From the NCBI GenBank assembly GCA_041658745.1, contig JBAZZP010000001.1:165434-229433 (forward strand): a DNA stretch of 64,000 nucleotides. The letters run 5' to 3'. Position numbers and translations under genes: made by a program. The DNA comes from Candidatus Margulisiibacteriota bacterium (GTDB taxonomy: Bacteria; Margulisbacteria; WOR-1; O2-12-FULL-45-9). Shown one piece after another: positions 34,464-62,707 of the stretch. Each line of letters starts with the position of its first letter. Position 1 is the first letter of the stretch. The notes below the pieces were generated by a model. That model worked only from the letters and a program-made list of their open reading frames with translations. It was not told the origin of the DNA and did no database searches.

Positions 34464-34465
34464 AA

Positions 34466-36064: not shown

Positions 36065-36069
36065 AAAAA

Positions 36070-36076
36070 CCTCCTT
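36070..36076 (-). promoter_or_regulatory. Shine-Dalgarno AAGGAGG for amidotransferase start at 36064
   Basis: Minus-strand AAGGAGGTTTTTATG, with perfect 5-nt spacing. Confidence 0.55.
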
Positions 36077-36189
36077 AAATTCATCTAAAATATATCTATT
36101 TGACAAAATGAGAGAAAATTATTTCGCCAAACAGCAACACCTTAGCTAAACGGGAACGCCTATTCATTCCTAAAATCACCTCCTTCTTC

Positions 36190-37215: not shown

Positions 37216-37249
37216 ATTATTTAAAACAACCTTTTCCAGCTTATAATCA

Positions 37250-39000: not shown

Positions 39001-39005
39001 AATAC

Positions 39006-40115: not shown

Positions 40116-40684
40116 ATTGTTTTTACCACTTGCCCTTCCATAGAATATTTTAAGCCGCACTTTGCACATTTACTCTGGTTGCCGGCAAAATCAAGTTTGG
40201 TACCACATTCGCACATCCATCCTTTGATACTGGCCGGATTGCCATAAACCAATGCATAATCAGGAACATTCTTGGTTACAACCGCGCCAGCCCCTACAAA
40301 AGAGTGCTTCCCAACCGTTGTCCCACAGACAATCGTACAATTGGCCCCCAAAGATGCCCCCTCTTTGATCAAAGTTTTATAGTATTTATCCGCAGTCTCT
40401 TGTGGATACTTGCAACGCGGATTAACGATATTGGTAAAGACCATAGATGGGCCACAAAATACATAATCCTCTAGCTCAACTCCACCATAAATGGAGACAT
40501 TATTTTGGATCTTGCAGTGGTTGCCAATTTTTACATGGTTTTGGACAAAAACATTTTGCCCCAGCTTACAACTTATTCCAATTTGAACCCCCGAGGATAT
40601 GTGCGAAAAATGCCAAATTTTTGTCCCTTCGCCAATTTCCACGGGTTCATCAATAATCGCGGTTTCGTGTTTAAAGTATTTCAT
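40112..40684 (-). CDS. hexapeptide N-acetyltransferase (WbpD/WlbB-like) with C-terminal Cys4 ribbon
   Basis: 190 aa. LbH repeats, then CECGTKLDFAGNQSKCAKCG. Confidence 0.8.
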   Translation of the reverse strand: MKYFKHETAIIDEPVEIGEGTKIWHFSHISSGVQIGISCKLGQNVFVQNHVKIGNHCKIQNNVSIYGGVELEDYVFCGPSMVFTNIVNPRCKYPQETADKYYKTLIKEGASLGANCTIVCGTTVGKHSFVGAGAVVTKNVPDYALVYGNPASIKGWMCECGTKLDFAGNQSKCAKCGLKYSMEGQVVKTI

Positions 40685-41690: not shown

Positions 41691-41693
41691 GAC

Positions 41694-43025
41694 TTATATT
41701 TTAACTATTTTAGCCTTTGATCCCTTACCGGCAGTAAGAGTCGCATTCCTTGTATCAACAATTAAGCTGGCATTATCAACAATCATTTTATAATCGTATA
41801 CAGAATGGTCTGTCGCTACAACCACACAGTCATATTGTTTTAACATTTTAGCATTCAACGAAACAGAAGACTGGAGCGCGCCTGCAATTTTAATTGACTT
41901 TACAAAAGGATCATTGTATTTTACTTTTGCACCTTTTTTATCTAACAAATCAAATATTTTAATGGAGGGGGACTCGCGCCAATCATTTATATCTTTTTTA
42001 TAAGCCATTCCCAGCACAAGCACATTAGAATTTTTAATGCTTTTATTGTATTCATTTAACCCATCTTGAATTAATTGAACCACATATTCGGGCATCTTGT
42101 CATTGATTTCGCCCGCAAGCTCAATGAAACGGGTGACTAGATCATATTCTTTGGCTTTCCAAGAAAGATAAAAAGGATCAAGTGGGATGCAATGGCCACC
42201 AATTCCAGGGCCTGGATAAAACGCCATATAACCATAGGGTTTTGTTTTAGCGGCGGCAATTACTTCCCAAACATCAATTTCCATTTTCTTACATAAAATA
42301 GCCATTTCATTAACCAAAGCAATATTAACACTACGAAAGACATTTTCTAGTAATTTTTCCATTTCAGCAACACGAGGGGAAGAGACAACGAAGGTTTCTT
42401 TTATAATTTGGGAATACAACAACTTTGCCACATAGGTGCACTGCGGAGTTACCCCGCCAATGACTTTTGGAATATCACCGGTTTTAAATTTTTCATTGCC
42501 TGGATCTACTCTTTCGGGAGAAAAAGCTAGATAAAAATTAGTGCCTACTTTTAATCCAGAGTTGGAAAGCTTAGGCAAAATGATTTCTTCGGTTGTACCA
42601 GGATACGTAGTACTTTCAAGGACGATTAATTGTCCATTATGAACAATTTTTGTAATTTGCTCGGTTACGGATTTAACATATGAAATGTCTGGCTGTTTAT
42701 TCTTATCCAGGGGCGTTGGGACACAAATAATAATAACATCAACATTTTTTAAGGTTAAAAAATCTCCAGAAGCCCTCAACAAATCTTTTCTAACAATTTC
42801 TTTTAGATCCGCATCAGATACGTCAGCGATATAATTCTCGCCATTATTAATCATTTTCATGCGGGTTAAATTTTGTTCAATCCCGAGCACCTCAAAACCT
42901 ACCTTTGAAAATGCCACCGCCAGAGGCAACCCAACATATCCCAAACCAACAATGCCAATCTTGGCACTTTTAGCAATTATTTTATCGGCTAAATCCAGTT
43001 TAGATAAAACATGTTTCTTTTTCAC
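41694..43025 (-). CDS. nucleotide-sugar 6-dehydrogenase (WbpA/WecC/TviB-like UDP-GlcNAc/ManNAc dehydrogenase)
   Basis: 443 aa. IGIVGLGYVGLPLA, GGHCIPLDP (catalytic Cys). Confidence 0.85.
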   Translation of the reverse strand: MKKKHVLSKLDLADKIIAKSAKIGIVGLGYVGLPLAVAFSKVGFEVLGIEQNLTRMKMINNGENYIADVSDADLKEIVRKDLLRASGDFLTLKNVDVIIICVPTPLDKNKQPDISYVKSVTEQITKIVHNGQLIVLESTTYPGTTEEIILPKLSNSGLKVGTNFYLAFSPERVDPGNEKFKTGDIPKVIGGVTPQCTYVAKLLYSQIIKETFVVSSPRVAEMEKLLENVFRSVNIALVNEMAILCKKMEIDVWEVIAAAKTKPYGYMAFYPGPGIGGHCIPLDPFYLSWKAKEYDLVTRFIELAGEINDKMPEYVVQLIQDGLNEYNKSIKNSNVLVLGMAYKKDINDWRESPSIKIFDLLDKKGAKVKYNDPFVKSIKIAGALQSSVSLNAKMLKQYDCVVVATDHSVYDYKMIVDNASLIVDTRNATLTAGKGSKAKIVKI

Positions 43026-50454: not shown

Positions 50455-51555
50455 CTATTTGCGATAAAGTTGTCTTTGGTCAGTTGTTATAAAGTCGTCC
50501 TTTGCAAAAACTTCGTTATAAGGAACCGGCAATGGCTTTCCATAGATTTTATTTGCCACAACATTATTGATAAAGTCTCGATCTTCGGCAATTAAACAAG
50601 TATCAACATATTTGCCAAAATACTTATTATTTAAGCCTCTTTCGATTATATCTTTGAGCGGTTCATTAAAGAAATTGCCCATCGAGACATGAATATACGG
50701 ACAAGGCAAGACATCTCCATATTTTGTTATAGAAACCATCCTTTTTACTGCGATACAACCCAAATCCATACCATAAGAAGGAGACAAATGGGTGAAAACA
50801 TTATATTTCTTCTCAAGTTGTCTCATATAGTCCATATCTTCTCTATCAACTAAACAACTATAATTACCTTCCCAGGCGCCCACCGGTTTCGCATAACTGA
50901 CAAATACCCCAACCCCCATCTTGTTATTTAAATACTCAAGAAAATCGATGAATTCTTGCGATCTAACTCGTTGTTTAGTCACCACTGTCTGCACAATAAT
51001 ATTTAGGCCAGCCTTATGAGCCGCATCAATTGCTCGAAGACAACGCTCATGTGATCCGGGTTTTCTCCTAAAGGCATCGTGGTCATCAACCGAAAGGCTG
51101 TCAAGACTCAGTTGAATCTTATCCACTCCAATTTTTTTTAGATGCTTGGCCCGTTCATCGTCGAATAGCCATCCATTTGTATCACAAGAGATATAAAACT
51201 TTTGCGGATCAATGGCTTCAATTATCTCGTCAAAATCAGGAAAAACAAGAGGCTCTCCCCCCGTTAATACAATATTAGCTAAGCCCATTTCATCAGCTTG
51301 CCGAGAGAGCTCTTTGACATCTTTAGGAGTAAAATAACGGCCGTCTTTTCTGCCTTGAAATCTTTTTATACAACAATGCTCACAAGCAAAATTACAGCGA
51401 TAATCGTATTGGAGCTGAATAATGGCAATACTCTCACCCTTTTTTATTTTTTCGTCAAACTTTTGAACTTTATGATATACCAATGGTTTTTCTTTGAGCA
51501 AAGAATTTCGCTTTTCATTCTCCAATTTGCTTAAGTGCGTATCGCCTTCAGACAT
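50455..51555 (-). CDS. radical SAM enzyme (with C-terminal Cys-rich auxiliary region)
   Basis: 366 aa. CNFACEHC (CxxxCxxC) and NIVLTGGEPLV. Additional Cys residues in the C-terminal third (CIAV...CPY...C). Confidence 0.75.
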   Translation of the reverse strand: MSEGDTHLSKLENEKRNSLLKEKPLVYHKVQKFDEKIKKGESIAIIQLQYDYRCNFACEHCCIKRFQGRKDGRYFTPKDVKELSRQADEMGLANIVLTGGEPLVFPDFDEIIEAIDPQKFYISCDTNGWLFDDERAKHLKKIGVDKIQLSLDSLSVDDHDAFRRKPGSHERCLRAIDAAHKAGLNIIVQTVVTKQRVRSQEFIDFLEYLNNKMGVGVFVSYAKPVGAWEGNYSCLVDREDMDYMRQLEKKYNVFTHLSPSYGMDLGCIAVKRMVSITKYGDVLPCPYIHVSMGNFFNEPLKDIIERGLNNKYFGKYVDTCLIAEDRDFINNVVANKIYGKPLPVPYNEVFAKDDFITTDQRQLYRK

Positions 51556-51566: not shown

Positions 51567-52697
51567 CTAAATAATCTCTAGCCCATGACTCCTCAGCACA
51601 GCGACATTTTTGATCAGACTATGTTTTTGCTTTATTGTTCTGGCAACTTCATCAGAATATCCACCGGCTATTATAATTATAGCATCCGGTGGGTCCAGGT
51701 TAAGTGTTTCGGGATCTACTATGGGAAGATGAGAGGCCGGAGTATATTTGCCCTGTTTGAAAGGAGCCGAATCAACCACATACCGTACTTGCTTGGATAA
51801 TTCCATCAATGAAATCAGGGCAAAGGCCTGGTGCCCAGCACCCCATATAGCCACTTTTTGAAACTTACTAATGTAATCCGATAAGGCGTTTTTTAGTTTG
51901 CTTTGATGAAGACAAAAATCGGCAAGTTCCACCTTTTTTCGTTTTCTAACAATCATAGAAATAATATAGTCATGCCAGATTTCTTTACTTTCTAAAATAT
52001 CAAAACCATTGATCTTTAAAGCCGTTTCTAAAGTATCCTCGGTAAAATAAGACAAATGATCGGGAATAAATTCAGAAAATAATTTATTGCGCAATATCAT
52101 ATCAAAGTTTGGCACCTCAATTAATCCAATCCCATCTTCAGCCAGATTGTGTTTAATCCCAGCCAAGATTAAGTTTGGATTAGGCAAATGCTCAAAATAA
52201 TTCAACATAATAAATGCCGCAAAAGGACCACCAACAACAGCCTGGTCTTCTTGTTCAATAAAACCAGCGGAAACTTTTAAGCCATTTTTTACACAGAACT
52301 CAACTGACGTATTTAAATTTTCAATGCCATAGGCATCAACCCCACTCTGCTTAATTAAGGACAAATACTCACCTCGACCACACCCAATTTCGATTACCTT
52401 TTTATTTCTAAGTGAATACTTATCAATTATTTCAGCAAATTGTTTGATACGAAAAGCTCGCATATCATCAGAGAAAGCCGCTGCGCGGATTACGTTCTTA
52501 TAATAAGAGACCGGTTCATTAATTAATTGGACTAAACCACAGCCGGAACACTGATACACATCTAAAGCTACCCCTTTATCTCTTTTTAATCCGATTTTAT
52601 CCGGCAAATCTTGCGCCGATTTTGGCATATTCTCATAACGAAGCAGTGGATCTTGCAACAAACTGTGTCCGCAAATTCGACAAAAGTATTTTTTCAT
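51567..52697 (-). CDS. NDP-hexose C-methyltransferase-like (Zn-ribbon + SAM MTase + C-terminal domain)
   Basis: 376 aa. CRICGH...CSGCG, VIEIGCGRGEY (motif I). Same architecture as 26378..27637. Confidence 0.6.
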   Translation of the reverse strand: MKKYFCRICGHSLLQDPLLRYENMPKSAQDLPDKIGLKRDKGVALDVYQCSGCGLVQLINEPVSYYKNVIRAAAFSDDMRAFRIKQFAEIIDKYSLRNKKVIEIGCGRGEYLSLIKQSGVDAYGIENLNTSVEFCVKNGLKVSAGFIEQEDQAVVGGPFAAFIMLNYFEHLPNPNLILAGIKHNLAEDGIGLIEVPNFDMILRNKLFSEFIPDHLSYFTEDTLETALKINGFDILESKEIWHDYIISMIVRKRKKVELADFCLHQSKLKNALSDYISKFQKVAIWGAGHQAFALISLMELSKQVRYVVDSAPFKQGKYTPASHLPIVDPETLNLDPPDAIIIIAGGYSDEVARTIKQKHSLIKNVAVLRSHGLEII

Positions 52698-52701: not shown

Positions 52702-53202
52702 TTAAAGATATTTGCCATAGATTTCATCATGCACGGGAATTATGTTTTTGGGACATCCTTTATGCCACAACCACTCATTGTTTTTGGGGGAATCAACATT
52801 GAGACAGTGTTGCTTCTCATCTAAAGGGGTCACCAACTGGCAACCATACAACAAAGAAATAAAATGACCACGATCTTTTCGCTCAAGAATTATTTCATTG
52901 ATCGCCAAAGGCAATGGAGCATATTTCACCTCGACGTTTAATTCGTTTTTGGCAACGGCAGTAATTCTTTCTTTCATAGTTTCTTTATATCTTATAATTC
53001 CACCAGGGATATGCCATCCCGGGGGTCCGTAATTATCGGCTCTCCAGGTTAACAAAGTCTCTCCCTGGGAGTTTTTTATCAACAAATCTACATTAATCAA
53101 TGGCGTTATTCTACTGACAAAATAAAACACCTCTTCCGGCAAACCTGCAGTAGGGTTAACAATGCTTTTTTCTATTTGATTAATTGCATCCCTTATTTTC
53201 AT
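52702..53202 (-). CDS. NUDIX-fold hydrolase-like protein (degenerate Nudix box; GDP-mannose mannosyl hydrolase-like)
   Basis: 166 aa. GGIIRYKETMKERITAVAKNELNV is a partial Nudix signature. Confidence 0.45.
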   Translation of the reverse strand: MKIRDAINQIEKSIVNPTAGLPEEVFYFVSRITPLINVDLLIKNSQGETLLTWRADNYGPPGWHIPGGIIRYKETMKERITAVAKNELNVEVKYAPLPLAINEIILERKDRGHFISLLYGCQLVTPLDEKQHCLNVDSPKNNEWLWHKGCPKNIIPVHDEIYGKYL

Positions 53203-54080
53203 AATAATTCTTCTTTATTGATGATTTGTTTATTTGCACTATACCAATTATATAAATCCAAAATAGCCTCATCAAGCGGAGTAAACCTAAACTTTTCTAA
53301 TTCCTTTAAAAGCTGCATATTATTTCCACTATATTCGCGGCAAGGGCTATCAGAATTATCGATTATTTCGATATCTTTTCCAGCTATTTTCTTAACAATT
53401 TTTGCCAATTCAGCCGCTTTGATCTCCAGGCCAGAACAAACATTATATACCTGTTGCAAAGGAGAATTATTAACAAACCATCTTACAATCGCAACCAAAT
53501 CGTTAATATATAAGTAATCGTAATAAGTATTTTGCCTTATCATTATTGGAAGATCAAATAACGCTGAGCAACAAGCCCTTGAAATAAACCGATAGCGCCA
53601 ATCCTCGTATTTACCAAAGACAGAAAACACCCTGAGGTTATAAATATTTTTGCTTTGCAGAGCATGCTTTGTCATAACATATTTAGAAAAACCATACTGC
53701 TCCGTAGGCACATGTTGATCATAATAACCTTCATCCATTTTTAACCGCCAATTCTCTCTCCCAAATTCTGCCCCCGAACCAAAATACAACAACTTTCCAT
53801 AATGATCATTACATCGCGCGACATTAAAAAACATTCTTAAGTTGTTTTCTAATACTTTAGCAGGATCTTTGATGGAATATTTGGGTGCCGGATCATGGGT
53901 AGCTGCATGAATAACAACGTCAAATCGGCCATTTTTTATGAGGTCTAAAACCTTATTGGAATCTAAAAGATCAAGCTCAGAATGATTGCAGGCGATTACC
54001 TCAAAATCATGACATAATTGCTCAAATAGATTACGAGCAATAAAACCTTTTCCTCCAGTAATTAATAATTTCTTCGCCAT
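53199..54080 (-). CDS. SDR-family NAD(P)-dependent sugar epimerase/reductase
   Basis: 293 aa. LLITGGKGFIARNL, YGFSKYVMT (YxxxK). Confidence 0.75.
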   Translation of the reverse strand: MAKKLLITGGKGFIARNLFEQLCHDFEVIACNHSELDLLDSNKVLDLIKNGRFDVVIHAATHDPAPKYSIKDPAKVLENNLRMFFNVARCNDHYGKLLYFGSGAEFGRENWRLKMDEGYYDQHVPTEQYGFSKYVMTKHALQSKNIYNLRVFSVFGKYEDWRYRFISRACCSALFDLPIMIRQNTYYDYLYINDLVAIVRWFVNNSPLQQVYNVCSGLEIKAAELAKIVKKIAGKDIEIIDNSDSPCREYSGNNMQLLKELEKFRFTPLDEAILDLYNWYSANKQIINKEELL

Positions 54081-54095: not shown

Positions 54096-55178
54096 TTAAT
54101 GCTTAGCAATTGGGGGATGTCCCTTCAAATACTCCCCAACCAAATGCATATCACACTCATCAGAACATTTTAACCCTTTTGACAAATTAAAGTGAGCTTC
54201 CCTAAATGCTTTATATTTATCTCCATTCCAAATAGCATATAATGACTCTTCTTTTGCATTCCCCAAAATGATTTCATTATTATAATCTTCCATGCACATT
54301 ACCACTTCGGCATTAGATTTTACGGTCATAGACATCCACGGATGCTTACAGATTTCTGACCAGTGGACCGATTTTGTTCCGTGGTAGTTCTGCCGATACC
54401 ATTGCTGATCTTCACTTTTTAAATACAAATAGACATCCAAATCTTTAAAGGCAGCTTTTAGTTTTTGATATTCTTCTTCTTGCCAAGAGTTGTTTAGATC
54501 CAACATTGTAATAACAATTCTGGTGGTAAGCCCGCGCTGTTTTTTGAGATTTATAAGTTCTAATATTTTATTATAGCTTTGGGTAAAATTGGACTGATCA
54601 CCCCTAATCTCCTTATGCCTTGCGTCATCAACGCTTTCGATCGAATACTTGATATAACTCAAACCATTTTCAAACATTCTAACTGTAGTAGCAAGATCTA
54701 TATTCGCAGGATTACAACTAAAGTATGAATGAAAACCCCTCTCAGTTAGCAATTTAACATATTCGCTCATGTTTTTATCAAGCAATGGATCGCCATAACC
54801 ATGCAGTTGAATTACTTTAGGAATAATATATAAGAAAAAATTATTCTCGCTCTGCTCTTCTTTTTCAATGTTATATTGTTCTTTAACAAATTTTTCCCAG
54901 GTTGACCATTCATCCTTTGACCAGGGACGCAATTGATCAATAATATGAATAAAGGTGTCTTTATCAATTGTTTCAACTTTTCTCGTCATCCGAGTGGTTC
55001 TGGGACACATTTTACATTTCATATTACAGGCATTCGTAGTCTCTATGTTATAAACAACCGGCTCTTTTCTACGCATACCTTCAAATTGCCCGACAATGAA
55101 ATCATGATCAAAGGTTTCCCCATTCAACATCCTGTTCACCAAATCATGTGATTGCATATAAAAGTGAATATCAAACAT
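54096..55178 (-). CDS. radical SAM enzyme (second; Cys-rich C-terminus)
   Basis: 360 aa. CNMKCKMC (CxxxCxxC); C-terminal CMEDYN...C..C cluster. Confidence 0.75.
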   Translation of the reverse strand: MFDIHFYMQSHDLVNRMLNGETFDHDFIVGQFEGMRRKEPVVYNIETTNACNMKCKMCPRTTRMTRKVETIDKDTFIHIIDQLRPWSKDEWSTWEKFVKEQYNIEKEEQSENNFFLYIIPKVIQLHGYGDPLLDKNMSEYVKLLTERGFHSYFSCNPANIDLATTVRMFENGLSYIKYSIESVDDARHKEIRGDQSNFTQSYNKILELINLKKQRGLTTRIVITMLDLNNSWQEEEYQKLKAAFKDLDVYLYLKSEDQQWYRQNYHGTKSVHWSEICKHPWMSMTVKSNAEVVMCMEDYNNEIILGNAKEESLYAIWNGDKYKAFREAHFNLSKGLKCSDECDMHLVGEYLKGHPPIAKH

Positions 55179-55202: not shown

Positions 55203-56171
55203 TTACTTTGTTTTAAAAGCCAATACTTTTAAGGCCAAGGAAAGCGCATTAATCCCATCTTCCAGTGAACAAAGTGGGAGCTCTTTTCCATTAACGATAG
55301 AAATAAAATGGCGCATTTCTTCAACAAACAGACTATTTCTTTCAAATTCATGGGAAGGAGAAAAATGCTCCCAATTTAATAATTTGTTCCTATAAATTGA
55401 AAGTTTACCATCCGTATTATTCCAACCGATTGTCCCCTCGGTGCCAACAATCTCTAAAGTGTGTGTGGGTGGCTTCTGCAAATAATTGAGTTGTAATACC
55501 CCTAAGGCTCCATTTGGAAAACGTAAAATAGCTTCCGCAGTATCTTCCACTGCAATGCCCAAATCCCCTCTGTTTTCAGCACAAGCCCACTCTACCGTTG
55601 GTTTACCAAGCAACCAATTTAAATAATCAAATGGATGGCACAGGGTTAAAACAACTCCCCCTCCCAAATCGGGCCTAGCGGCATAACTACTTTTATAATC
55701 TTCCCAGGGGTGCATATCCGGCAAATATTCTCCCCAACGCGCACAAATTGATACTGGCCGACCTATTTCTCCATTTAAAATTAGTTGGGAAGCAATTTTT
55801 AGTGTGGGATGAAACCTAAATTGAAAACCAACTAAGAGTTTTCCCTGGCCCTGCAGCAAAGCAGCTTGCAATTTATCGATCTTTTCAAGTGAATTAGAAA
55901 TAGGTTTCTCTAGCAAAATATGGCATCCAGCTTTGGCCGCCGGAATTGCGACATCAAGGTGCAATGCCGATGGATTGGAGATAATAAATGCATCTGGATT
56001 AAGCGCCAAGGCCGCTTCGATACTTGTTACTACCGGATATTGTTGCAACTCTTCGGCAGGTAATGAGCTCAAGTTGTTGCGCAGCAAAACAATGTCACTT
56101 TCTCCAAGCACAACCAAGTTTTTTAAATGGCGCCGACCAATTGACCCAAGTCCAGCAATAACATATTTCAT
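55203..56171 (-). CDS. Gfo/Idh/MocA family oxidoreductase
   Basis: 322 aa. VIAGLGSIGRRH, LLEKPIS. Confidence 0.8.
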   Translation of the reverse strand: MKYVIAGLGSIGRRHLKNLVVLGESDIVLLRNNLSSLPAEELQQYPVVTSIEAALALNPDAFIISNPSALHLDVAIPAAKAGCHILLEKPISNSLEKIDKLQAALLQGQGKLLVGFQFRFHPTLKIASQLILNGEIGRPVSICARWGEYLPDMHPWEDYKSSYAARPDLGGGVVLTLCHPFDYLNWLLGKPTVEWACAENRGDLGIAVEDTAEAILRFPNGALGVLQLNYLQKPPTHTLEIVGTEGTIGWNNTDGKLSIYRNKLLNWEHFSPSHEFERNSLFVEEMRHFISIVNGKELPLCSLEDGINALSLALKVLAFKTK

Positions 56172-56174: not shown

Positions 56175-57983
56175 TTATTCTTCTATGGGGGGAATAATCA
56201 TGTTTGATAAAAATTCCTGGCGATCAAGGAAAGGCCAAAGGTCCTCCAATGGTTTTGAGATCATAGTCCCATCCGGTTTTTGCATGGTCATCATACTGGG
56301 AGCCCTAGGCTCGTCAGGAGGATTAATAACCTCACAAACAATTGGTCCCGGCATATTTATAACTTCCCTTATTTTTTCGGTTAATCCATTTTGATCGCTA
56401 ATTTTTAGAGTGGGCAAGCCGTATGCTTCGGCTATCTTGCAGATATCGGGCAAACCTAAACCACTACCATTATCTGCCCCAGTTAATCTCCCAAAATAGC
56501 GTAGCTGAGATGTCCTAATAGAGGAATAACCTTGATTGTTAAGTACAAAGATCTTAATCGGTAATTTGAGGCGAGCAATGGTGGCAAGTTCCTGAATATT
56601 AAATTGGATGCCACCATCGGCCTCAATACAAATTGTCCGTTTTCCACCACTAGCCAGACAAGCTCCAATACTCGCTGGCAAACCATTCCCCATCGAACCG
56701 AGGGCGGTGGTATTTAAAACCCTTTGCCCCCTTTTCGCTCTAAAAGCCAGTAGAAAGATCTCAATTCCTGCCCCCGAACTGGTAGGGATGATAATATCAT
56801 CTGAATTAAGTTCCTCCGAAAGAACATCAGTAAAAGCATAGACGCTAACCAATTTTTCTTGTAAATATTTAGGCAAAACCACTGGATACTTCGCCTTCCA
56901 CTCCCGACATCTAGCCATCCATCCATCTCGCTTATTGGGCAATAGCTTGTCGCATTGAAAAAGCATTTCTTGAATAACAGCCTTGGCATCAAAACAAATA
57001 GGAATATCAATTTTAGTCTGCATTTTACTTATTTCTGTCTGGTCAATATCCACCATAACTTTTTTTGCGGCCCTGGCAAACTTTTCATGAGAATAACCGG
57101 TGATCACAGTATCTAAACGAGCCCCAAGGCTAATTAACAAATCTGAATTTTGCAGTGCAAAATTTGCCCCACGGGGAGCAACGGGCCCGGGCCGGCCAAC
57201 CAGCAAAGGATGAGTGTCGGGCAATAAATCCAGCGCCGGCCAAGTCAGTAAAACTGGGATTTGCAATCGCTCGACCAAAGACAAAACATCATTGATCGCA
57301 TTAGATAATCGCACCCCATTTCCAATCAATAAGATTGGCCGTACCGACTCATTTAGCAATTTGAATATTTTTGCAACAGAAGCTTTCATTTCTTTTTCTT
57401 GCTCTTCATTTACCAATTCGATTTGATCAAACAAAGACAACGAATCAGTTTCAATTATGGCCGCTTGAACATCGAGCGGAATATCAAGCCAAACCGGGCC
57501 AGGTCGGCCAGTTTGTGCAAGATAAATCGCTTTTTCAAGATGATAACGGATAGAATTAGGATCCATAATGGTAACCGAGTATTTTGTGATCGATTTAATA
57601 ATTGTAACAATATCCAGCTCTTGTACCCCATTTTGCCGGACACCCAGATTGCCAATAAGGTCAGAACACTTCACTTGTCCCGAAATAAACAAACAAGGAG
57701 TAGAATCTAACCACGCCCCTGCTACTCCAGTAATTGCATTGGTTCCGCCGGGGCCGGTTGTCACCATCGCAACTCCTAAAGAATTATTAACAATTCTAGA
57801 ATACGTTTCCGCGGCCATGGCACTAGCTTGCTCATGCTGATTACAGATAAATTCAATGCCCTTCTGGTGGCCAATAGAATCGTTGAGATGCATTGCTCCT
57901 CCGCCTGGAACCATAAAAACATGCTTAACCCCATGATCCATAAGAAACTGCGCAATGTAATCAGAAAGTTTTATTTTCATCAA
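56175..57983 (-). CDS. TPP-dependent acetolactate-synthase-like enzyme (YerE-like candidate)
   Basis: 602 aa. All three AHAS domains are visible: N-terminal VKHVFMVPGGGAMHL...TTGPGGTN, a central domain, and a C-terminal TPP domain. Confidence 0.8.
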   Translation of the reverse strand: MMKIKLSDYIAQFLMDHGVKHVFMVPGGGAMHLNDSIGHQKGIEFICNQHEQASAMAAETYSRIVNNSLGVAMVTTGPGGTNAITGVAGAWLDSTPCLFISGQVKCSDLIGNLGVRQNGVQELDIVTIIKSITKYSVTIMDPNSIRYHLEKAIYLAQTGRPGPVWLDIPLDVQAAIIETDSLSLFDQIELVNEEQEKEMKASVAKIFKLLNESVRPILLIGNGVRLSNAINDVLSLVERLQIPVLLTWPALDLLPDTHPLLVGRPGPVAPRGANFALQNSDLLISLGARLDTVITGYSHEKFARAAKKVMVDIDQTEISKMQTKIDIPICFDAKAVIQEMLFQCDKLLPNKRDGWMARCREWKAKYPVVLPKYLQEKLVSVYAFTDVLSEELNSDDIIIPTSSGAGIEIFLLAFRAKRGQRVLNTTALGSMGNGLPASIGACLASGGKRTICIEADGGIQFNIQELATIARLKLPIKIFVLNNQGYSSIRTSQLRYFGRLTGADNGSGLGLPDICKIAEAYGLPTLKISDQNGLTEKIREVINMPGPIVCEVINPPDEPRAPSMMTMQKPDGTMISKPLEDLWPFLDRQEFLSNMIIPPIEE

Positions 57984-58484
57984 TTAGCCTTTTACAGACA
58001 GTAACAAATCTAATAATTCTCTTACTGCACCAGCCCCGCCAGAACGTTTGGTAACGATGTTAGATACTTTGACTATAGTTGAGTGAGCATCTTTTGGACA
58101 GACAGACAAGCCAACTATTTTTAGCGCCGGCAGATCAATAATATCATCACCTATAAAACAAATTTCGGATAAACCAAAATTATATTTTTTAGCATATTCG
58201 ATAACCGCCTTAGCCTTATCATGGCATCCCTTATAAACATCATTTATCTTCAACTTTTTTGCGTAACGAGAGACAATTGCCATCCCGGAAGGACTACTTT
58301 CACCAGAAACTAAACCAATTTTAATCCCCGCCTTCTGGGCCAGGGAAATTCCCGTCCTATCGGCAAAACAAAATCTCTTCATCTCTAAGCTATCAGAATC
58401 CAACCAAAAAGACCCATCAGTTAAAACACCATCAACGTCCATTAAAACTGCTTTTATTCTTTTTATTTCTTTTCGCACTATCAA
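57984..58484 (-). CDS. HAD-superfamily KdsC-family phosphatase (Kdo-8-P / nonulosonate-9-P phosphatase-like)
   Basis: 166 aa. LMDVDGVLTDG (DxDG), FIGDDIIDLP. Confidence 0.8.
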   Translation of the reverse strand: MIVRKEIKRIKAVLMDVDGVLTDGSFWLDSDSLEMKRFCFADRTGISLAQKAGIKIGLVSGESSPSGMAIVSRYAKKLKINDVYKGCHDKAKAVIEYAKKYNFGLSEICFIGDDIIDLPALKIVGLSVCPKDAHSTIVKVSNIVTKRSGGAGAVRELLDLLLSVKG

Positions 58485-58506
58485 GATGGCCTCCTAAATA
58501 ATAATT

Positions 58507-59376
58507 TTATACATTTCTAAGTCTTTTAATAATAGGCTCTTCACATGCCAATATTTTTTTGACTCCATTCCCCATAGATGTTTCAACCAGACGAATATCC
58601 CTAATTAATCGATTTAAGCCATTTGGTTCTAGAGAGGCGGCATGATCAGATCCCCACATAGCTCGATCCAAAGTAATATGGCGTTCTATAACACACGCTC
58701 CCATCGCCCGAGCAGCAACTGAAGAGGGTAAGCCCGTTTCGTGACCAGAATATCCAACCAAAACCTTATATCTGTTTTTTAAAAAAGGGATCAAACGCAA
58801 ATTGAGATCTTCGTATCGAGCGGGATAAGCACTGCAACAATGCAGCAAAATTAAATTGTCCTTTTGTAAAACTTCAACCGCATGATCCAGTTGTTCTAAA
58901 GATGACATGCCGGTGGATAATATTACTGTTTTACCCTGTTTTCTTACGTGTTTTAGCAAAACATCATCCGTTAATTTTGCGGCCGGGATCTTAATGCAAG
59001 GGGTGTTATATTGAGCAATAAAATCAACTGAATCAATATCCCACACCGAAACCAACCATGTAATACCAATTTCTTTGCAATACTTATTGATTTCATCATA
59101 CTCTTTCTTGCCAAATTCTATTTTATTGCGGTAATCGAAATAGGTCATATTTCCCCAGGGGGTCTCTCGCAGAATATCTCGTTGACTTAAAGGTACGCAT
59201 AATTCTGGATTGCGTTTTTGAAATTTAACGGCATTACAGCCCGCATCAGCAGCGACCGCAATCAGCTTCTTCGCAATATCTATCTCCCCATTGTGATTTA
59301 TCCCTATCTCCGCAATAAAATACGAAGGGCAATCATCACCAACTTGAACATTACCAATCTCTAAATTACTTGTCAT
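58507..59376 (-). CDS. third NeuB-family synthase paralog (short form, no SAF domain)
   Basis: 289 aa. YFIAEIGINHNGE, KFQKR, KIPAAK, GYSGHETG. Confidence 0.8.
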   Translation of the reverse strand: MTSNLEIGNVQVGDDCPSYFIAEIGINHNGEIDIAKKLIAVAADAGCNAVKFQKRNPELCVPLSQRDILRETPWGNMTYFDYRNKIEFGKKEYDEINKYCKEIGITWLVSVWDIDSVDFIAQYNTPCIKIPAAKLTDDVLLKHVRKQGKTVILSTGMSSLEQLDHAVEVLQKDNLILLHCCSAYPARYEDLNLRLIPFLKNRYKVLVGYSGHETGLPSSVAARAMGACVIERHITLDRAMWGSDHAASLEPNGLNRLIRDIRLVETSMGNGVKKILACEEPIIKRLRNV

Positions 59377-59396: not shown

Positions 59397-60734
59397 TTAA
59401 GCGAACTTTTTAATCGTACTTATAATAAAGTCAATCATTTTTCCTGTCATCCCGGGATAAACCCCAACCCAAAAAGTTTGATTCATTACAATATCGGTAT
59501 TTATTAATTTTCCAACAACACGAAAGCCCTTTCTTTTTTTTCTCATTTCATCAAAACAAGGATGTTTTATCATATTGCCAGCAAAGAGCATGCGGGTTTG
59601 TATCCCTTTTGATTCAAGATATTGCACAATTTGATCCCGCGTGTAGCCAGAGGATTTCTTTACCGTCAGCAAAAAACCAAACCAGCTCGGATCAGAATAT
59701 TCCGCAATCTCAGGCAAAACAAAAACATCTTGCATTTGATTGAGGCCAGATCGCAATATTTGCCAGTTTTTTTTCCTAGCTTCAACAAAAGCAGGCAGTT
59801 TTTCTAATTGAGCGCAACCAATGGCTGCCTGCAGATCGGTAGCTTTTAAATTGTATCCAAAATGCGAATAAACATATTTATGATCATAACCAAAAGGAAG
59901 TTCACCAAATTGCTGGGTAAAACGTCGTCCACAGCTATTATCTATTCCGGATGGACACCAACAGTCTCTCCCCCAATCACGCAGAGAGTTAACTATTTTA
60001 TTTAGCTGCCTATCATTAGTATAAACGGCACCACCTTCTCCCATCGTCATATGGTGAGGAGGATAAAAGCTAGAAGTTGCAACGTGGCCAAAGGTCCCAG
60101 TTTGATGCCAGCTCCCCTTATACTTATACCTAGATCCCAAAGAATCACAATTATCTTCAATTAACCAGAGGTTATGTTTATCACAAAAGTTTTTTACCGC
60201 ACTAATATCGAAAGGATTTCCCAAAGTATGGGCCAAGATAACCGCCTTGGTTTTCTTGGAAAGGGCCTTCTTTAATTGGGAACAATCAATATTATATGAG
60301 GGAAGAGAAACATCTACAAAGACCGGAATTGCTCCATATTGTACAATGGGAGCGATGGTGGTGGGGAAACCAGCCGCAACAGTTATGACTTCATCCCCTT
60401 TCTTTATCCTTTTATTTCCCAACTTAGGCGAAGTTAAAGCCATAAAAGCCAAAAGGTTAGCAGAAGAACCAGAATTTACAAGCGAACAGAACTTTATCCC
60501 CAAATACGCAGCAAATTCTTTTTCAAATCTTTCAGCATAACGACCTGTGGTCAACCAAAAATCCAGAGAAGCATCAATCAAATTGGCAATTTCTTTCTCA
60601 TCAAAAACCCTGCCGGCATATGAAATACGATCACCTGGAACAAATTCATGCTGTGTAGACAAATGTTTAAATTCATAATGGTTGATGGCTGCTTGGATAG
60701 CTTTTTTTCTTAGTACTTTATCTTTACTTTTCAT
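59397..60734 (-). CDS. rfbH: CDP-4-keto-6-deoxyglucose 3-dehydrase (E1; RfbH/DdhC-like PMP + [2Fe-2S] enzyme)
   Basis: 445 aa, DegT fold, but the PLP-lysine position reads SFYPPHHMTMGEGG (His in place of Lys). It also has DCWCPSGIDNSCG (C-x-C-x7-C iron-sulfur motif). Confidence 0.8.
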   Translation of the reverse strand: MKSKDKVLRKKAIQAAINHYEFKHLSTQHEFVPGDRISYAGRVFDEKEIANLIDASLDFWLTTGRYAERFEKEFAAYLGIKFCSLVNSGSSANLLAFMALTSPKLGNKRIKKGDEVITVAAGFPTTIAPIVQYGAIPVFVDVSLPSYNIDCSQLKKALSKKTKAVILAHTLGNPFDISAVKNFCDKHNLWLIEDNCDSLGSRYKYKGSWHQTGTFGHVATSSFYPPHHMTMGEGGAVYTNDRQLNKIVNSLRDWGRDCWCPSGIDNSCGRRFTQQFGELPFGYDHKYVYSHFGYNLKATDLQAAIGCAQLEKLPAFVEARKKNWQILRSGLNQMQDVFVLPEIAEYSDPSWFGFLLTVKKSSGYTRDQIVQYLESKGIQTRMLFAGNMIKHPCFDEMRKKRKGFRVVGKLINTDIVMNQTFWVGVYPGMTGKMIDFIISTIKKFA

Positions 60735-60773: not shown

Positions 60774-61652
60774 CTACCTCCAATATAATATTACTATTAC
60801 AGCAAACAGCCAGCCAAACATCGCACCTATTAATGGGATATCTGACAGCATCAAGTTTTCTGCGCTGCCACCCTCATCTTTTTTATAAACCAAATATAGA
60901 TAACGGAACAATCCAAAAATGACAAAAGGAACCGTATATATCAGGTTAGAAGTATTAAATTTTTGCACCGTCTCAGAGGATAATGTATAGAGAGAATAGG
61001 TTAGGATTATTGCCGCAGTAACCACAGAGATCAATTGGTCAAGATATTGAAGGTTATATTCTTGAAAAACAAGGCGATGAATAACCGCATTTTCACCTAA
61101 AACCAAAATTTCGTTCCGGCGTTTACAAAAAACAATAAACAGAGCCAGAAGAAAGGCACAGACAAGAAACCAAGGAGTAAAAACAACCCCAATTACTTCT
61201 ACCCCGGCAACCGCACGAATGACATAGCCAGCTGCAATTATAAAAGCATCAAGAATAACTATTTTTTTCAAACCAAAAGTATAACCAAGCATTATTATGA
61301 TATATGCCACAACAAGATAACAAAAGTTAACATTTAATTGATAAGAAAAAAACAAGGAAAAAGGCAAAGCCACAATAACAAACAATTTAGCGATAATCGG
61401 AGACAAGGCTCCACTAGCAAGCGGACGCAGCTTCTTAGAAGAATGCAGTTTATCATTTTGCATATCTTTCAAATCATTAATTAAATAAATACAACTGGTT
61501 ACAGCACAAAACAAGAGAAAGGCATAAACAGTATTGATGAATAAAGGCAGATTAGATAATTTTAAAGCAAATAAAATCCCGGCAAAAATGATTAGGTTTT
61601 TGAGCCATTGCTTGGGGCGTAGGGATATCCACAAATAATAAAACTGCTTCAT
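60774..61652 (-). CDS. UbiA-family prenyl-phosphate phosphoribosyltransferase (DPPR-synthase-like)
   Basis: 292 aa, about 8 TM segments. N-terminal LRPKQWLKNLIIFAG and the aspartate motif INDLKDMQNDK (NDxxDxxxD). Confidence 0.65.
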   Translation of the reverse strand: MKQFYYLWISLRPKQWLKNLIIFAGILFALKLSNLPLFINTVYAFLLFCAVTSCIYLINDLKDMQNDKLHSSKKLRPLASGALSPIIAKLFVIVALPFSLFFSYQLNVNFCYLVVAYIIIMLGYTFGLKKIVILDAFIIAAGYVIRAVAGVEVIGVVFTPWFLVCAFLLALFIVFCKRRNEILVLGENAVIHRLVFQEYNLQYLDQLISVVTAAIILTYSLYTLSSETVQKFNTSNLIYTVPFVIFGLFRYLYLVYKKDEGGSAENLMLSDIPLIGAMFGWLFAVIVILYWR

Positions 61653-62707
61653 TGCATGTAATCCTTAATTTGACCGATACAAACCTCTCGCAAATCCTGC
61701 CTATTTTTGTATGCTAGTGTCCAGTCCATCACTTTTTGCAAGGCCATATCAAGATCCCACTGCGGTTTCCAACCTAGTTCTTTTTTGGCCTTGGCAATAT
61801 TTAAACGCAAATAATGGGTTTCGTGCGGATGTTTTCCACGGTCAATAGCATACGAAGCTCCCTGCCCCCATTTTTGGCAGAGTCGCTTTACAATCCAATC
61901 AACCGTCTTAGCATCACTTTTTTCCGGACCAAAGTTCCAGGCACCTGCATATTTCTCCCCATCAAGACAAAGTTTTTGCGCCAATAATAGATAGCCCGTT
62001 AATGGTTCTAACACATGCTGCCAGGGACGAACCGCTTTGGGACAGCGAACCATAATTTTTTCGTTTTTCAAAATCGCCCGCACAAAATCGGGAATTAAGC
62101 GATCGGCCGCCCAATCTCCACCCCCAATAACGTTACCGGCTCGAGCCGTAGCCACTGCCACCCTAGGGCTCAAAAAGGAACGGCGATAAGCCGCGGTAAC
62201 TATTTCACTGCAAGCCTTACTGCTGGAATACGGATCATAACCACCCAGTGGATCCCCCTCCAAATAACCCTGCCCCCTACTCCCTATCCCCTTCACCTCG
62301 TAACATTTATCCGTAGTAATATTGACAATGGCTTTTACCGCTTTGCAGCTGCGGGCCGCCTCTAACAAATTAACGGTTCCAAGAACATTGATTGTGTAGG
62401 TTTCAACCGGATTCTTGTATGATTCTCTAACCAGCGGCTGGGCAGCCATATGGATTATGATTTCTGGTTTTGCTTTGTGTATTACTTTTATTAGGTTGTC
62501 GCTATCTCGAATATCACCGATATGTGAATCAACCAGTTGGTCGACCCGACAGAGCTTAAAAAGGCTTGGGCTAGTGGGCGGATTCAAGGCATACCCCGTA
62601 ACTTCAGCTCCCAAATAATTTAGATAAATTGAGAGCCAGGTGCCTTTAAATCCGGTCTGTCCGGTAATAAATACCTTGCGGCCCTTCCAAAAACTACTTT
62701 TTTTCAA
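61649..62707 (-). CDS. rfbG: CDP-glucose 4,6-dehydratase
   Basis: 352 aa. FWKGRKVFITGQTGFKGTWL, HMAAQPLV, YSSSKACSE, RAGNVIGGGDWAADRLIPD. Near-collinear with enterobacterial RfbG. Confidence 0.9.
   Translation of the reverse strand: MKKSSFWKGRKVFITGQTGFKGTWLSIYLNYLGAEVTGYALNPPTSPSLFKLCRVDQLVDSHIGDIRDSDNLIKVIHKAKPEIIIHMAAQPLVRESYKNPVETYTINVLGTVNLLEAARSCKAVKAIVNITTDKCYEVKGIGSRGQGYLEGDPLGGYDPYSSSKACSEIVTAAYRRSFLSPRVAVATARAGNVIGGGDWAADRLIPDFVRAILKNEKIMVRCPKAVRPWQHVLEPLTGYLLLAQKLCLDGEKYAGAWNFGPEKSDAKTVDWIVKRLCQKWGQGASYAIDRGKHPHETHYLRLNIAKAKKELGWKPQWDLDMALQKVMDWTLAYKNRQDLREVCIGQIKDYMQ

Follow-up and report, generated by a model that had tools for sequence, protein, structure and literature searches.

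A gene for a NeuB-family synthase, followed by a gene for a KdsC-family phosphatase, was found in a Margulisiibacteriota metagenome-assembled genome (MAG), which raises the question of what keto-deoxy acid this pair makes and what becomes of the product. The window, i.e., the whole stretch of DNA that was analysed, comprises 64,000 nucleotides. An earlier note had described the synthase as a third NeuB paralog lacking a SAF domain, had placed the pair in a route that depends on sugar phosphates, and had suggested a third, distinct Kdn- or Kdo-like acid as the outcome. The product is probably not displayed as a third surface keto-deoxy acid. The reading favoured here, which rests on homology and gene context and is considered moderately probable, is that the NeuB and HAD proteins belong to an acyl-branched-sugar pathway, where they would provide a ThDP-dependent enzyme with its donor, a Kdn-like 2-keto acid.

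Both open reading frames are located on the minus strand in one tight operon, where the earlier note had placed them (Table 1). The Pfam NeuB domain covers residues 38-273 of the synthase (E 4.9e-79), the protein stops 16 residues past this domain, and no SAF match is obtained even at E<=1. The synthase also scores below the equivalog cut-offs of NeuB_NnaB and PseI. The synthase is indeed a third paralog that lacks SAF, although this domain is only weakly detected in the second one. The phosphatase reaches 134.7 bits with TIGR01670, the model of the KdsC/YrbI subfamily (cut-off 106.95), and its motifs I-IV are intact (MDVDGVLTDG, SGE, K, and GDDIID). Its start codon, TTG, lies 22 nt past the NeuB stop and is preceded by a ribosome-binding site, AGGAGG, 5 nt upstream. 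The gene for the ThDP enzyme starts 0-3 nt after the HAD stop, and 20 nt separate the end of the RfbH gene from the NeuB start. A scan for promoters and terminators gave matches at chance level.

Table 1. Genes of the cassette, its surroundings and the related genes elsewhere in the window (positions in the window unless stated otherwise).
Feature	Coordinates	Strand	Size, evidence and remarks
NeuB paralog	36190-37215		NeuB_NnaB equivalog 497.7 bits (cut-off 399.65); SAF 23.4 bits
CTP_transf_3 protein	37250-37984		inside legionaminic-acid set
Divergent NeuB paralog	37981-39000		SAF-like, 17.4 bits, below cut-off
Second radical SAM enzyme	50455-51555	-	Pfam; extended tailoring block
Sugar C-methyltransferase	51567-52697	-	Pfam; extended tailoring block
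NUDIX-like protein	52702-53202	-	Pfam; extended tailoring block
Extended SDR	53199-54080	-	293 aa; Pfam Epimerase; candidate YerF-like 1'-keto reductase
Radical SAM/SPASM enzyme	54096-55178	-	Pfam; putative tailoring role
Gfo/Idh/MocA oxidoreductase	55203-56171	-	Pfam; tailoring or reductase candidate
YerE-like ThDP-dependent carboligase	56175-57983	-	about 601 aa; three TPP-enzyme domains
KdsC-subfamily HAD phosphatase, capless (C0)	57984-58484	-	166 aa; TIGR01670
Short NeuB-family synthase	58507-59376	-	289 aa; Pfam NeuB, no SAF
RfbH/E1-type CDP-6-deoxy-4-hexulose 3-dehydrase	59397-60734	-	NF011936 729.9 bits (cut-off 423)
UbiA-family, decaprenyl-phosphate phosphoribosyltransferase-like protein	60774-61652	-	NF008977 258 bits (cut-off 234)
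CDP-glucose 4,6-dehydratase (RfbG)	61649-62707	-	TIGR02622 478 bits (cut-off 278)
Glucose-1-phosphate cytidylyltransferase (RfbF)	L001 3906-4691, just beyond window end		TIGR02623 325 bits (cut-off 300)

The relationships of the synthase point to a phosphorylated sugar as its substrate. It shares 39% identity with human NANS (208 bits) and 36% (1e-52) with the Kdn-9-P synthetase of Prymnesium parvum, an enzyme specific for Man-6-P (PMC6200933). In a neighbour-joining (NJ) tree, the short family forms a clade with these two enzymes in 100 of 100 bootstraps, and this NANS-type clade leaves out the two other paralogs of the window as well as SpsE (1VLI) and the Leptospira protein 6NCS. In a tree without bootstrap, its sister group consists of NeuB-AP_endonuc_2 fusions. 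Residues E23, K51, Q53, K129, H212, E231, H233, and D244 are invariant across the short-NeuB family. The position equivalent to E134 of NmeNeuB, lysine in the 289-aa synthase, is not conserved, and neither is it in the P. parvum enzyme, which is active. The KFQK, GYSGHETG, and ERHITLD..GSDH.ASLEP motifs of animal NANS are present, as is its extended WG..TY loop past strand β2. A loop of similar length is common to the synthase, NANS, and the P. parvum enzyme, and the free-sugar paralogs lack it. According to a passage in PMC8208679 that cites Cotton et al. 2014, the extended β2-α2 loop is implicated in phosphate binding by human NANS. Of two candidate markers of the phosphate route, the absence of SAF was rejected, as Leptospira 6NCS is SAF-less yet groups with the free-sugar enzymes, and the SGH and ERH motifs were weakened, as they also occur in the HAD-less NeuB-AP_endonuc_2 fusions.

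The fate of the product was approached through the gene neighbourhoods, taken as the region within 10 kb, of 87 short-NeuB loci. Class A comprises the 24 loci (21 non-redundant) that are linked to a ThDP enzyme, and the other short-NeuB loci number 63. In 81 of the 87 loci, spread over many phyla, the short NeuB has a gene for a KdsC-like HAD no more than 10 kb away, so the NeuB-HAD pairing reported for this window, with its gap of 22 nt, is confirmed and not due to chance. In all 24 class A loci the gene order NeuB-HAD-ThDP is fixed. These loci derive from nine phyla, with carriers among Margulisiibacteriota, Elusimicrobia, Smithella, Verrucomicrobiota, Acidobacteriota, Planctomycetota, Thermodesulfovibrionales, Hydrogenedentota, and Actinomycetota. 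RfbF, RfbG, and RfbH are encoded nearby in 13-14 of the 21 non-redundant class A loci, directly before the trio in most complete loci, and roughly one in three class A loci lacks them within 10 kb. The proposal of a separately displayed third sugar had overlooked both the next gene, which encodes the YerE-like ThDP carboligase, and the genes for a CDP-3,6-dideoxy-4-ketohexose, which are conserved with the pair in nine phyla. It is also left without support by the distribution of the CMP-ulosonate synthetase: the CTP_transf_3 HMM matches within 10 kb in none of the 24 ThDP-linked loci, compared with 56 of the 63 other short-NeuB loci, in which a CTP_transf_3-HAD fusion is located directly upstream of NeuB. 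Likewise, the family is missing from all 80 metagenome ThDP loci and from the five looked-up ones.

A reciprocal check from the ThDP side gave the same association, as all five looked-up homologues adjoin a NeuB-family gene. Among 53 informative metagenome loci, a NeuB-type gene lies beside the ThDP enzyme in 40, namely 24 with a short NeuB and a HAD, 4 with a short NeuB and no detected HAD, 9 with a NeuB of about 500 aa (a NeuB-cupin protein in three of three checked), and 3 with NeuB-AP_endonuc_2 fusions. The HAD accompanies only NANS-type short NeuBs (24 of 28 ThDP-linked) and is missing from all 13 loci whose NeuB is fused. One fused variant (L088) comes from an assembly labelled Nostoc sp. 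One NeuB-less locus (L162) carries an HMGL-like pyruvate aldolase gene directly upstream of the ThDP gene; pyruvate-aldolase Pfam families (HpcH/HpaI, HMGL-like) are not listed in L001-L007 and L088-L092. Because NeuB variants or an aldolase adjoin the same ThDP enzyme, they appear to be interchangeable keto-acid-making modules.

The best surviving alternative, although rather unlikely, is that NeuB and HAD constitute a self-contained pathway of the BT1713-1715 or NANS/NANP type leading to a CMP-activated third ulosonic acid, while the ThDP enzyme separately makes a yersiniose-type sugar from pyruvate. Such an arrangement would agree with a synthase and phosphatase of the Kdn-9-P type and with pyruvate as the canonical donor of YerE (PMC9306805). 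It would also agree with the closest non-ThDP relatives, which are clearly CMP-linked; among them are those of Streptomyces, a genus with Kdn teichulosonic acid in its walls (PMC11481543). These class B loci (Streptomyces, Anaerolineae, Chloroflexus) encode the same short-NeuB family, with 52-60% identity and 52 invariant positions, and the same HAD subfamily, and the Streptomyces locus probably represents the Kdn teichulosonic-acid route. Only one residue, L249 versus valine, is diagnostic between ThDP-linked and CMP-linked short NeuBs; the two groups are almost indistinguishable, and product fate is therefore not readable from the sequence alone. Class B loci have the HAD fused to a cytidylyltransferase and placed upstream of NeuB, and they lack ThDP and CDP-sugar genes. 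A CTP_transf_3 gene does exist in the window, but it is the only one, lies 20 kb from the cassette, and belongs to a legionaminic-acid set beside another NeuB. The distribution of this family, the contiguity of NeuB, HAD, and ThDP genes across nine phyla, and the presence of other keto-acid modules in the same place beside orthologous ThDP enzymes all argue against a self-contained pathway.

The ThDP enzyme has JanthE as its best solved relative (8RPH/8RPI/8RPJ; 2.3e-115, 390 bits, residues 3-591 aligned), a YerE-like enzyme (PMC12188165), and the YerE-like assignment was made through this comparison with JanthE. A different chemistry is improbable: the enzyme could be a simple decarboxylase yielding a 2-deoxy-aldose, or act like an acetolactate synthase with the keto group of the ulosonate accepting a pyruvate-derived unit, and the CDP-sugar genes would then serve a separate sugar. 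The acetolactate synthase-like fold is compatible with this, as are loci such as L009, L035, L071, L082, and L091, where NeuB and ThDP genes adjoin without RfbF/G/H within 10 kb. Nevertheless, the closest characterised relatives are ketone-accepting YerE-like carboligases, with the best acetolactate synthase reaching 277 bits, RfbF/G/H directly precede the trio in most complete loci, and genes for extended NDP-sugar SDRs and GT2 enzymes co-occur.

The specificity of the phosphatase could not be assigned by overall score. It falls below the cut-offs of both the KDN-9-P phosphatase equivalog NF058599 (128.9 bits, cut-off 180) and the KdsC equivalog NF007019 (127.1 bits, cut-off 208), and its PDB and NCBIfam scores for Kdn-9-P and Kdo-8-P phosphatases are nearly equal. 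Residue positions were therefore compared. Glu56, Arg64, and Lys67 of BT1713 are presumably substrate-binding specificity markers, a role reportedly described in work by Lu et al. in 2009 and Daughtry et al. in 2013. The HAD of the window has Glu and Lys at positions 56 and 67, together with Tyr at 64 and Arg at 63. The Glu56 and Lys67 pair is present in 22 of 23 class A and all 57 class B HADs; at position 64, class A HADs have Tyr or Phe with Arg at 63, and class B HADs retain Arg64. In three solved KdsC structures, position 56 is Arg and position 67 is Thr, Ala, or Glu. The phosphatase is not a housekeeping KdsC. That it is an ordinary KdsC for LPS Kdo, placed beside NeuB incidentally, is hardly credible: it passes the KdsC/YrbI subfamily model and scores similarly against solved KdsC and BT1713, but it fails the KdsC equivalog cut-off, differs from the three solved KdsC at positions 56 and 67, recurs with short NeuBs even in monoderm Streptomyces and in Chloroflexota, and no kdsA, kdsB, kdsD, or lpt family occurs among the annotations of the scanned window ORFs. 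The position of the synthase in the NANS/Kdn-9-P clade, the near-constant HAD partner, and the Glu56 and Lys67 residues support the earlier suggestion of a sugar-phosphate-dependent synthase, and the short NeuB and its phosphatase probably do use a phosphorylated sugar.

In the proposed donor-supply pathway, RfbF, RfbG, and RfbH would form CDP-4-keto-3,6-dideoxy-D-glucose, the RfbH product being the predicted 3,6-dideoxy-4-keto acceptor. The short NeuB is predicted to condense PEP with an aldose phosphate from central metabolism to a 3-deoxy-2-ulosonate phosphate; Man-6-P as substrate and Kdn-9-P as product are most likely. Hexoses are known substrates of NeuB enzymes, and a C4 or C5 aldose phosphate is possible as well. 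The HAD is predicted to remove the phosphate from the synthase product, although it could act after the ThDP step instead of before. The ThDP enzyme is then predicted to decarboxylate the ulosonic acid and to attach the acyl anion so formed at C4 of the CDP-keto-sugar, which, with Kdn as donor, would create a 2'-deoxy-polyhydroxy-octanoyl branch. To our knowledge, no natural sugar with a C8 branch has been described. Kdn exists mostly as a pyranose hemiketal and may be a poor ThDP donor. Reduction of the 1'-keto group may then fall to the SDR, the Gfo/Idh/MocA enzyme, or both. Tailoring would be the task of the radical SAM enzymes and the C-methyltransferase, and glycosyltransferases would place the product in an envelope glycan.

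The candidate tailoring genes vary in their conservation. The radical SAM/SPASM gene of the extended cassette is kept in L002 (73%), L004 (62%), and L048, and the NUDIX-like protein, C-methyltransferase, and second radical SAM enzyme recur as a trio in L002 (51-73% identity) and, in part, in L048. The 293-aa SDR has a homologue with 56% identity in L002, while an SDR of about 355 aa, which is only 24% identical to it, precedes NeuB in 11 of the 21 non-redundant class A loci. A gene for a Gfo/Idh/MocA enzyme is located 3' of the ThDP gene in L002, L004, L089, and L092, is fused to the HAD in the Smithella locus L004, and has homologues in ThDP-less, sulfotransferase-rich Anaerolineae loci. Together, these contexts point to no single branch of the pathway for this enzyme. 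An E3 (RfbI/AscD) reductase was not seen in the window, and a NAD_binding_1 candidate was detected in L090 only. The UbiA-family gene, which sits between the dehydratase and RfbH genes and is present in only one of the 87 loci, is probably outside the core cassette.

The proposed pathway follows the 'unifying scheme' of Steitz et al. 2022 (PMC9306805) for acyl-branched sugars, which covers yersiniose (YerE/YerF), erwiniose (ErwE/ErwF with the aldolase ErwI), caryophyllose (MMAR_2332 with the aldolase MMAR_2331), and gastriose (MyGE/MygI). Like these clusters, the present locus brings together genes for CDP-4-keto-3,6-dideoxyglucose and a YerE-like carboligase with candidate NAD(P)H oxidoreductases and an enzyme that forms a C-C bond and could yield a hydroxylated 2-keto acid, and the 2'-deoxy position expected in the branch corresponds to C3 of a 3-deoxy-ulosonic acid. 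ErwE rejects pyruvate and takes aldolase-made γ-hydroxy-2-keto acids, MMAR_2332 and MyGE use C4-C8 donors, and a C8 3-deoxy acid has been proposed for gastriose (PMC9306805). The difference lies in the donor supply: a PEP-dependent NeuB acting on a sugar phosphate, with a KdsC-type phosphatase, would take the slot of the pyruvate aldolase (BphI/HpaI/citrate-lyase-like) of the erwiniose, caryophyllose, and gastriose clusters. Further differences are the predicted donor, which would be longer (up to C9), and the two radical SAM enzymes, the C-methyltransferase, and the NUDIX-like protein of the extended cassette.

With the Kdn pathways of Bacteroides thetaiotaomicron (synthase BT1714, phosphatase BT1713, CMP-Kdn synthetase BT1715) and P. 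parvum (PMC6200933), the cassette shares a SAF-less NeuB synthase, compared here with the P. parvum enzyme, and a C0 HAD with Glu56 and Lys67. Unlike in B. thetaiotaomicron, the cassette lacks a CMP-Kdn synthetase and has the ThDP enzyme next instead, and the HAD departs from BT1713 in its NF058599 score and in having Tyr at the Arg64 position, with Arg one residue earlier. The logic of phosphorylation, condensation, and dephosphorylation would be that of animal NANS/NANP, but NANS carries a SAF/AFP domain at its C-terminus, NANP belongs to another type of HAD, and the animal product is CMP-activated. Similarly, the KdsA/KdsC pathway to Kdo joins PEP and an aldose phosphate to an ulosonate phosphate that is dephosphorylated by a KdsC-family enzyme, whereas the present synthase belongs to the NeuB family and not to KdsA, and its HAD, which has no KdsC-type Arg at position 56 of BT1713, scores below the KdsC equivalog cut-off.

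More tentatively, a wider proposal may be put forward. Kdn or a close homologue would be a C9 acyl donor and not a glycan residue. The resulting 3,6-dideoxy-4-C-(polyhydroxyoctyl)hexoses, with about 14 carbons each, would be a new class of very large branched monosaccharides in the cell envelopes of numerous phyla, most of them uncultured; in this organism, C-methylation and deoxygenation would follow. NeuB-based modules (the phospho-route with HAD, the cupin fusion, and the AP_endonuc_2 fusion) would then be the main source of donors for this YerE-like clade. A literature search, whose scope did not extend to Krug et al. 2024, found no co-mention of 'YerE-like' with sialic or Kdn synthase terms. 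The acyl-branched-sugar scheme itself is known; what would be new, if true, is a NeuB-type synthase with a phosphatase as its donor supply.

If the proposed pathway is true, the annotation of such loci is a trap, since adjoining genes labelled 'N-acetylneuraminate synthase', 'KdsC', and 'acetolactate synthase' would pass for genes of sialic acid, Kdo, and branched-chain amino-acid metabolism, and surveys that take NeuB homologues as a sign of nonulosonic-acid display would overcount. In addition, biocatalysis would gain ThDP carboligases with polyhydroxylated C8-C9 donors, and the series of acyl-branched envelope sugars, C2-C7 so far, would gain a longer and more polar branch. Unknown higher-carbon monosaccharides would be predicted in Margulisiibacteriota, Elusimicrobia, Acidobacteriota, Verrucomicrobiota, Planctomycetota, and other phyla. 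Synthases of the sialic-acid family would thereby have a second metabolic role, the building of side chains and not of terminal sugars.

The genes of the window are glycan biosynthesis genes in an unbroken minus-strand run, and the same stretch is found on a Logan contig (L001). The DNA belongs to a Candidatus Margulisiibacteriota MAG; an NCBI protein recorded for that taxon matches the short NeuB synthase with 100% identity. A short NeuB synthase followed by a KdsC-type HAD phosphatase had been reported here in an earlier note, and the coordinates of both ORFs proved exact. The synthase was also rightly said to lack the SAF domain of the other NeuB paralogs: a Pfam search found no SAF match even at E ≤ 1, while one paralog has the domain and the other a weak signal. 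The synthase scores under the curated cut-offs of both the NeuB_NnaB and PseI equivalogs. The HAD likewise remains below the equivalog cut-offs for KdsC (127.1 vs 208) and for KDN-9-P phosphatase (128.9 vs 180). NeuB starts 20 nt after the end of RfbH; the HAD gene starts with TTG, 22 nt past the NeuB stop and preceded by AGGAGG, and its stop abuts the start codon of the next gene.

Coordinates of the synthase-phosphatase pair, its neighbour and the NeuB paralogs in the window, and of NeuB variants in related loci
Feature	Position	Strand	Remarks
Short NeuB synthase	58507-59376	-	289 aa, NeuB domain alone, Pfam 4.9e-79
HAD phosphatase	57984-58484	-	166 aa, KdsC/YrbI subfamily model 134.7 vs cut-off 106.95
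YerE-like ThDP enzyme	56175-57983	-	abuts phosphatase gene; homology annotation acetolactate-synthase-like
NeuB paralog, bona fide NeuB/LegI type with SAF	36190-37215		within legionaminic-acid gene set
NeuB paralog, divergent	37981-39000		SAF signal weak
NeuB beside related ThDP enzyme, locus L088	11853-14105		AP_endonuc_2 or Cupin_2 fusion
NeuB beside related ThDP enzyme, locus L089	7688-9985		AP_endonuc_2 or Cupin_2 fusion
NeuB beside related ThDP enzyme, locus L092	5659-8004		AP_endonuc_2 or Cupin_2 fusion
NeuB beside related ThDP enzyme, locus L133	4451-5980		AP_endonuc_2 or Cupin_2 fusion

Several other sugar gene sets are present in the window. The complete legionaminic-acid-type set (29449-37984, minus strand) encodes a CBS-nucleotidyltransferase, NeuD-like and NeuC-like proteins, LegC, LegB, a WbuX amidotransferase, the NeuB with SAF, and the only CTP_transf_3 of the window. 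The divergent NeuB (in 37981-43025, minus strand) falls below both equivalog cut-offs, and carries the unusual metal-site motif YQDHSDAE. After it come genes for DegT, a hexapeptide acetyltransferase, Gfo/Idh/MocA, and a UDP-sugar dehydrogenase (WbpA/B/D/E-like). At 4142-9503 (minus strand), an E1_dh alpha (7466-8443) and Transket_pyr/Transketolase_C beta (6484-7482) pair is flanked by a DegT aminotransferase, a class I/II aminotransferase and a formyltransferase-like gene. This pair resembles ThDP sugar-branching enzymes of the alpha-keto-acid-dehydrogenase-2 type (reviewed in PMC12247030) and is possibly a second, unrelated branching system. Another sugar C-methyltransferase, whose N-terminus is a zinc ribbon, is encoded with NUDIX, formyltransferase, DegT aminotransferase and GDP-mannose 4,6-dehydratase genes (23905-29421, minus strand); the set probably forms a separate pathway to a C-methylated formamido sugar.

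The top solved relative of the ThDP enzyme is 8RPH/8RPI/8RPJ, with 390 bits vs 277 for the best ALS; 8RPH is the structure of JanthE, a YerE-like enzyme (PMC12188165). Upstream of the pair lie RfbH (729.9 bits, cut-off 423) and CDP-glucose 4,6-dehydratase (478, cut-off 278), with a glucose-1-phosphate cytidylyltransferase just past the window end. These three enzymes are predicted to supply the compound that YerE uses as acceptor, CDP-4-keto-3,6-dideoxyglucose. The locus had been read as a possible source of a third, distinct Kdn- or Kdo-like keto-deoxy acid; the pair on which that reading was built stands, but the abutting YerE-like gene and the CDP-sugar genes had been overlooked. A UbiA gene resembling decaprenyl-phosphate phosphoribosyltransferase (60774-61652, minus strand) is inserted in the CDP-sugar operon, as seen in 1 of 87 related loci among the matches listed. 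Alongside a 660-aa membrane protein, GtrA and GT2 encoded upstream on L001, its presence hints that glycosylation may be lipid-linked and periplasmic.

Erwiniose, caryophyllose and gastriose are proposed to arise when a ThDP enzyme adds gamma-hydroxy-2-keto acids to CDP-4-keto-3,6-dideoxyglucose and the adduct is then reduced (Steitz et al., PMC9306805). In that work, ErwE rejected pyruvate and used an aldolase-made gamma-hydroxy-2-keto acid, MMAR_2332 and MyGE accepted C4-C8 donors, and a BphI-type aldolase was compared with ErwI. By our reading of the structures, the 2'-deoxy position of these branches is C3 of a 3-deoxy-2-keto acid. The identified and linked genes of the window match this scheme one to one, with a single substitution: NeuB and HAD take the place of the pyruvate aldolase. 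Because of this fit, a ulosonate-donor route is proposed from sequence and gene context. The predicted substrates, timing of the HAD step and product are as follows: the short NeuB would convert an aldose phosphate and PEP to a ulosonate phosphate, from which the HAD would release the free ulosonate. The ThDP enzyme would then decarboxylate the ulosonate and add it to the CDP-keto-sugar, with reduction, tailoring and transfer onto a glycan to follow.

The same cassette surrounds homologues in Elusimicrobia, Smithella and Verrucomicrobiota, and the short-NeuB loci of the census split into two classes. Class A, which has the ThDP enzyme, comprises 24 loci (21 non-redundant, nine phyla, window included) among the matches listed, with the invariable order NeuB, HAD, ThDP enzyme; a purpose-built HMM detected CTP_transf_3 in none of these 24. 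ORF clustering of the 21 (again among the matches listed) gives a core of NeuB (21), ThDP enzyme (21), HAD (19 and one fused), RfbF (14), dehydratase (13), RfbH (13), GT2 (12), an FkbM-type methyltransferase (12) and a ~355-aa extended SDR (11). RfbF/RfbG/RfbH lie near the trio in 13-14 of them, mostly directly upstream. The CMP-linked class B, found in Streptomyces, Anaerolineae, Chloroflexus, Gemmatimonadaceae and others, lacks the ThDP enzyme and encodes its HAD as the C-terminal half of a ~410-aa CTP_transf_3-HAD fusion directly upstream of NeuB. CTP_transf_3 was matched in 56 of 63 non-class-A loci among the matches listed; most of the remainder are class A loci that are truncated or variant. 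In the tree, class A NeuBs cluster with moderate support (70/100 bootstraps when the related locus L013 is counted in); nested among them is a small CMP-linked group from Chloroflexi.

Individual loci show further variation. The window's ThDP enzyme has ADGG in place of GDGG in its ThDP-binding motif (residue 455), a minority variant found in 2/22 class A enzymes and 6/120 homologues; JanthE has CDGG. In Smithella (L004, 12938-14431), a Gfo/Idh/MocA oxidoreductase carries the KdsC-like HAD as a C-terminal fusion (497 aa), which suggests that both act on one common intermediate. An Anaerolineales locus (L054, 2213-13526) holds CTP_transf_3-HAD and short NeuB amid a bifunctional ATP-sulfurylase/APS kinase and three sulfotransferases, suggesting a sulfated ulosonic acid.

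Viewed from the ThDP enzyme, a NeuB-family gene adjoins all five homologues looked up (61-69% identity). One has short NeuB and HAD, three a NeuB-AP_endonuc_2 fusion (750-781 aa; weak SAF match in two, CBS match in two; one from an assembly labelled Nostoc sp.), and one the same pieces as two genes. The AP_endonuc_2 or Cupin_2 fusions of L088, L089, L092 and L133 have no HAD partner. When metagenomes were scanned with aligned homologues of the ThDP enzyme, 80 loci were obtained, none with CTP_transf_3. In the 53 whose upstream sequence spans 1.6 kb or more, the ThDP gene is accompanied by short NeuB and HAD (24), short NeuB with HAD not detected (4), a ~500-aa NeuB (9), a NeuB-AP_endonuc_2 fusion (3) or no NeuB (13). 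The ~500-aa form was a NeuB-cupin (Cupin_2) fusion in all three scanned with Pfam, one of which (L098) also matches the D-lyxose isomerase family. Pfam spot checks of six of the 13 NeuB-less loci revealed a stand-alone AP_endonuc_2 gene adjoining the ThDP gene in five. In the sixth, the gene directly upstream encodes an HMGL-like pyruvate aldolase, and RfbF/G/H are present as well; HMGL-like is the family of the BphI-type aldolase likened to ErwI. HAD was found in 0/13 loci with fused NeuB. This distribution indicates that keto-acid-making modules alternate beside the same ThDP enzyme, and that the phosphatase travels with the NANS-type synthase only.

A self-contained CMP-Kdn-type route is unlikely, given the strict absence of the cytidylyltransferase wherever the ThDP enzyme occurs. 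Loci without RfbF/G/H nearby would suit a ThDP enzyme that uses the ulosonate in another way, which is considered rather improbable. For the ulosonate-donor route, a literature search whose scope did not extend to Krug et al. found no link between YerE-like enzymes and sialic or Kdn synthases; SAF-less NeuBs were previously noted only as an 'environmental' group with no function assigned (PMC8208679).

Four lines of evidence identify the short NeuB as a predicted phospho-sugar synthase, in agreement with the earlier note. It shares 36% identity (1e-52) with the P. parvum Kdn-9-P synthetase (sequence from the PMC6200933 supplement), which is SAF-less and converts Man-6-P but not free mannose (PMC6200933), and 39% (208 bits) with human NANS (sequence confirmed by exact look-up). 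An NJ tree unites the short family, the P. parvum enzyme and NANS in one clade (100/100 bootstraps) and leaves outside it both other NeuB paralogs of the window, SpsE of B. subtilis and the short enzyme 6NCS of Leptospira; thus, clade membership and not the absent SAF is informative. Of 87 short-NeuB loci among the matches listed (80 from a genome-collection scan and 7 by protein look-up, including the window's), 81 have a KdsC-type HAD no more than 10 kb away. The catalytic motifs of the HAD are intact. In the numbering of BT1713, the KDN-9-P phosphatase of Bacteroides thetaiotaomicron, it shares Glu56 and Lys67 with that enzyme, whereas in three solved KdsC proteins position 56 is Arg and position 67 is Thr, Ala or Glu. 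The motifs SGH and ERH, which the synthase shares with NANS, are also present in HAD-less NeuB-AP_endonuc_2 fusions and are thus alone no proof of phosphate dependence. A housekeeping KdsC, the case named earlier as refuting, is contradicted by residues, cut-offs and distribution alike and is highly improbable.

The keto acid is assigned only tentatively: the BT1713 Arg64 position is Tyr or Phe in class A HADs, with an Arg one residue off, and class B HADs keep Arg64; a shorter aldose phosphate is conceivable as synthase substrate. Four relationships speak for Kdn. Both characterised synthase relatives, NANS and the P. parvum enzyme, use hexose 6-phosphates. This NeuB family is encoded by Streptomyces class B loci, and Kdn teichulosonic acid occurs in Streptomyces walls (PMC11481543). 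Class A and class B NeuBs have 52 invariant positions in common and one diagnostic difference (L249 vs V). In some variants, NeuB is fused to a cupin similar to D-lyxose isomerase, a family that also interconverts fructose and mannose. Together, these four relationships tentatively favour Kdn-9-P formed from Man-6-P as the synthase product, from which a sugar of ~14 carbons with a C8 branch would result.
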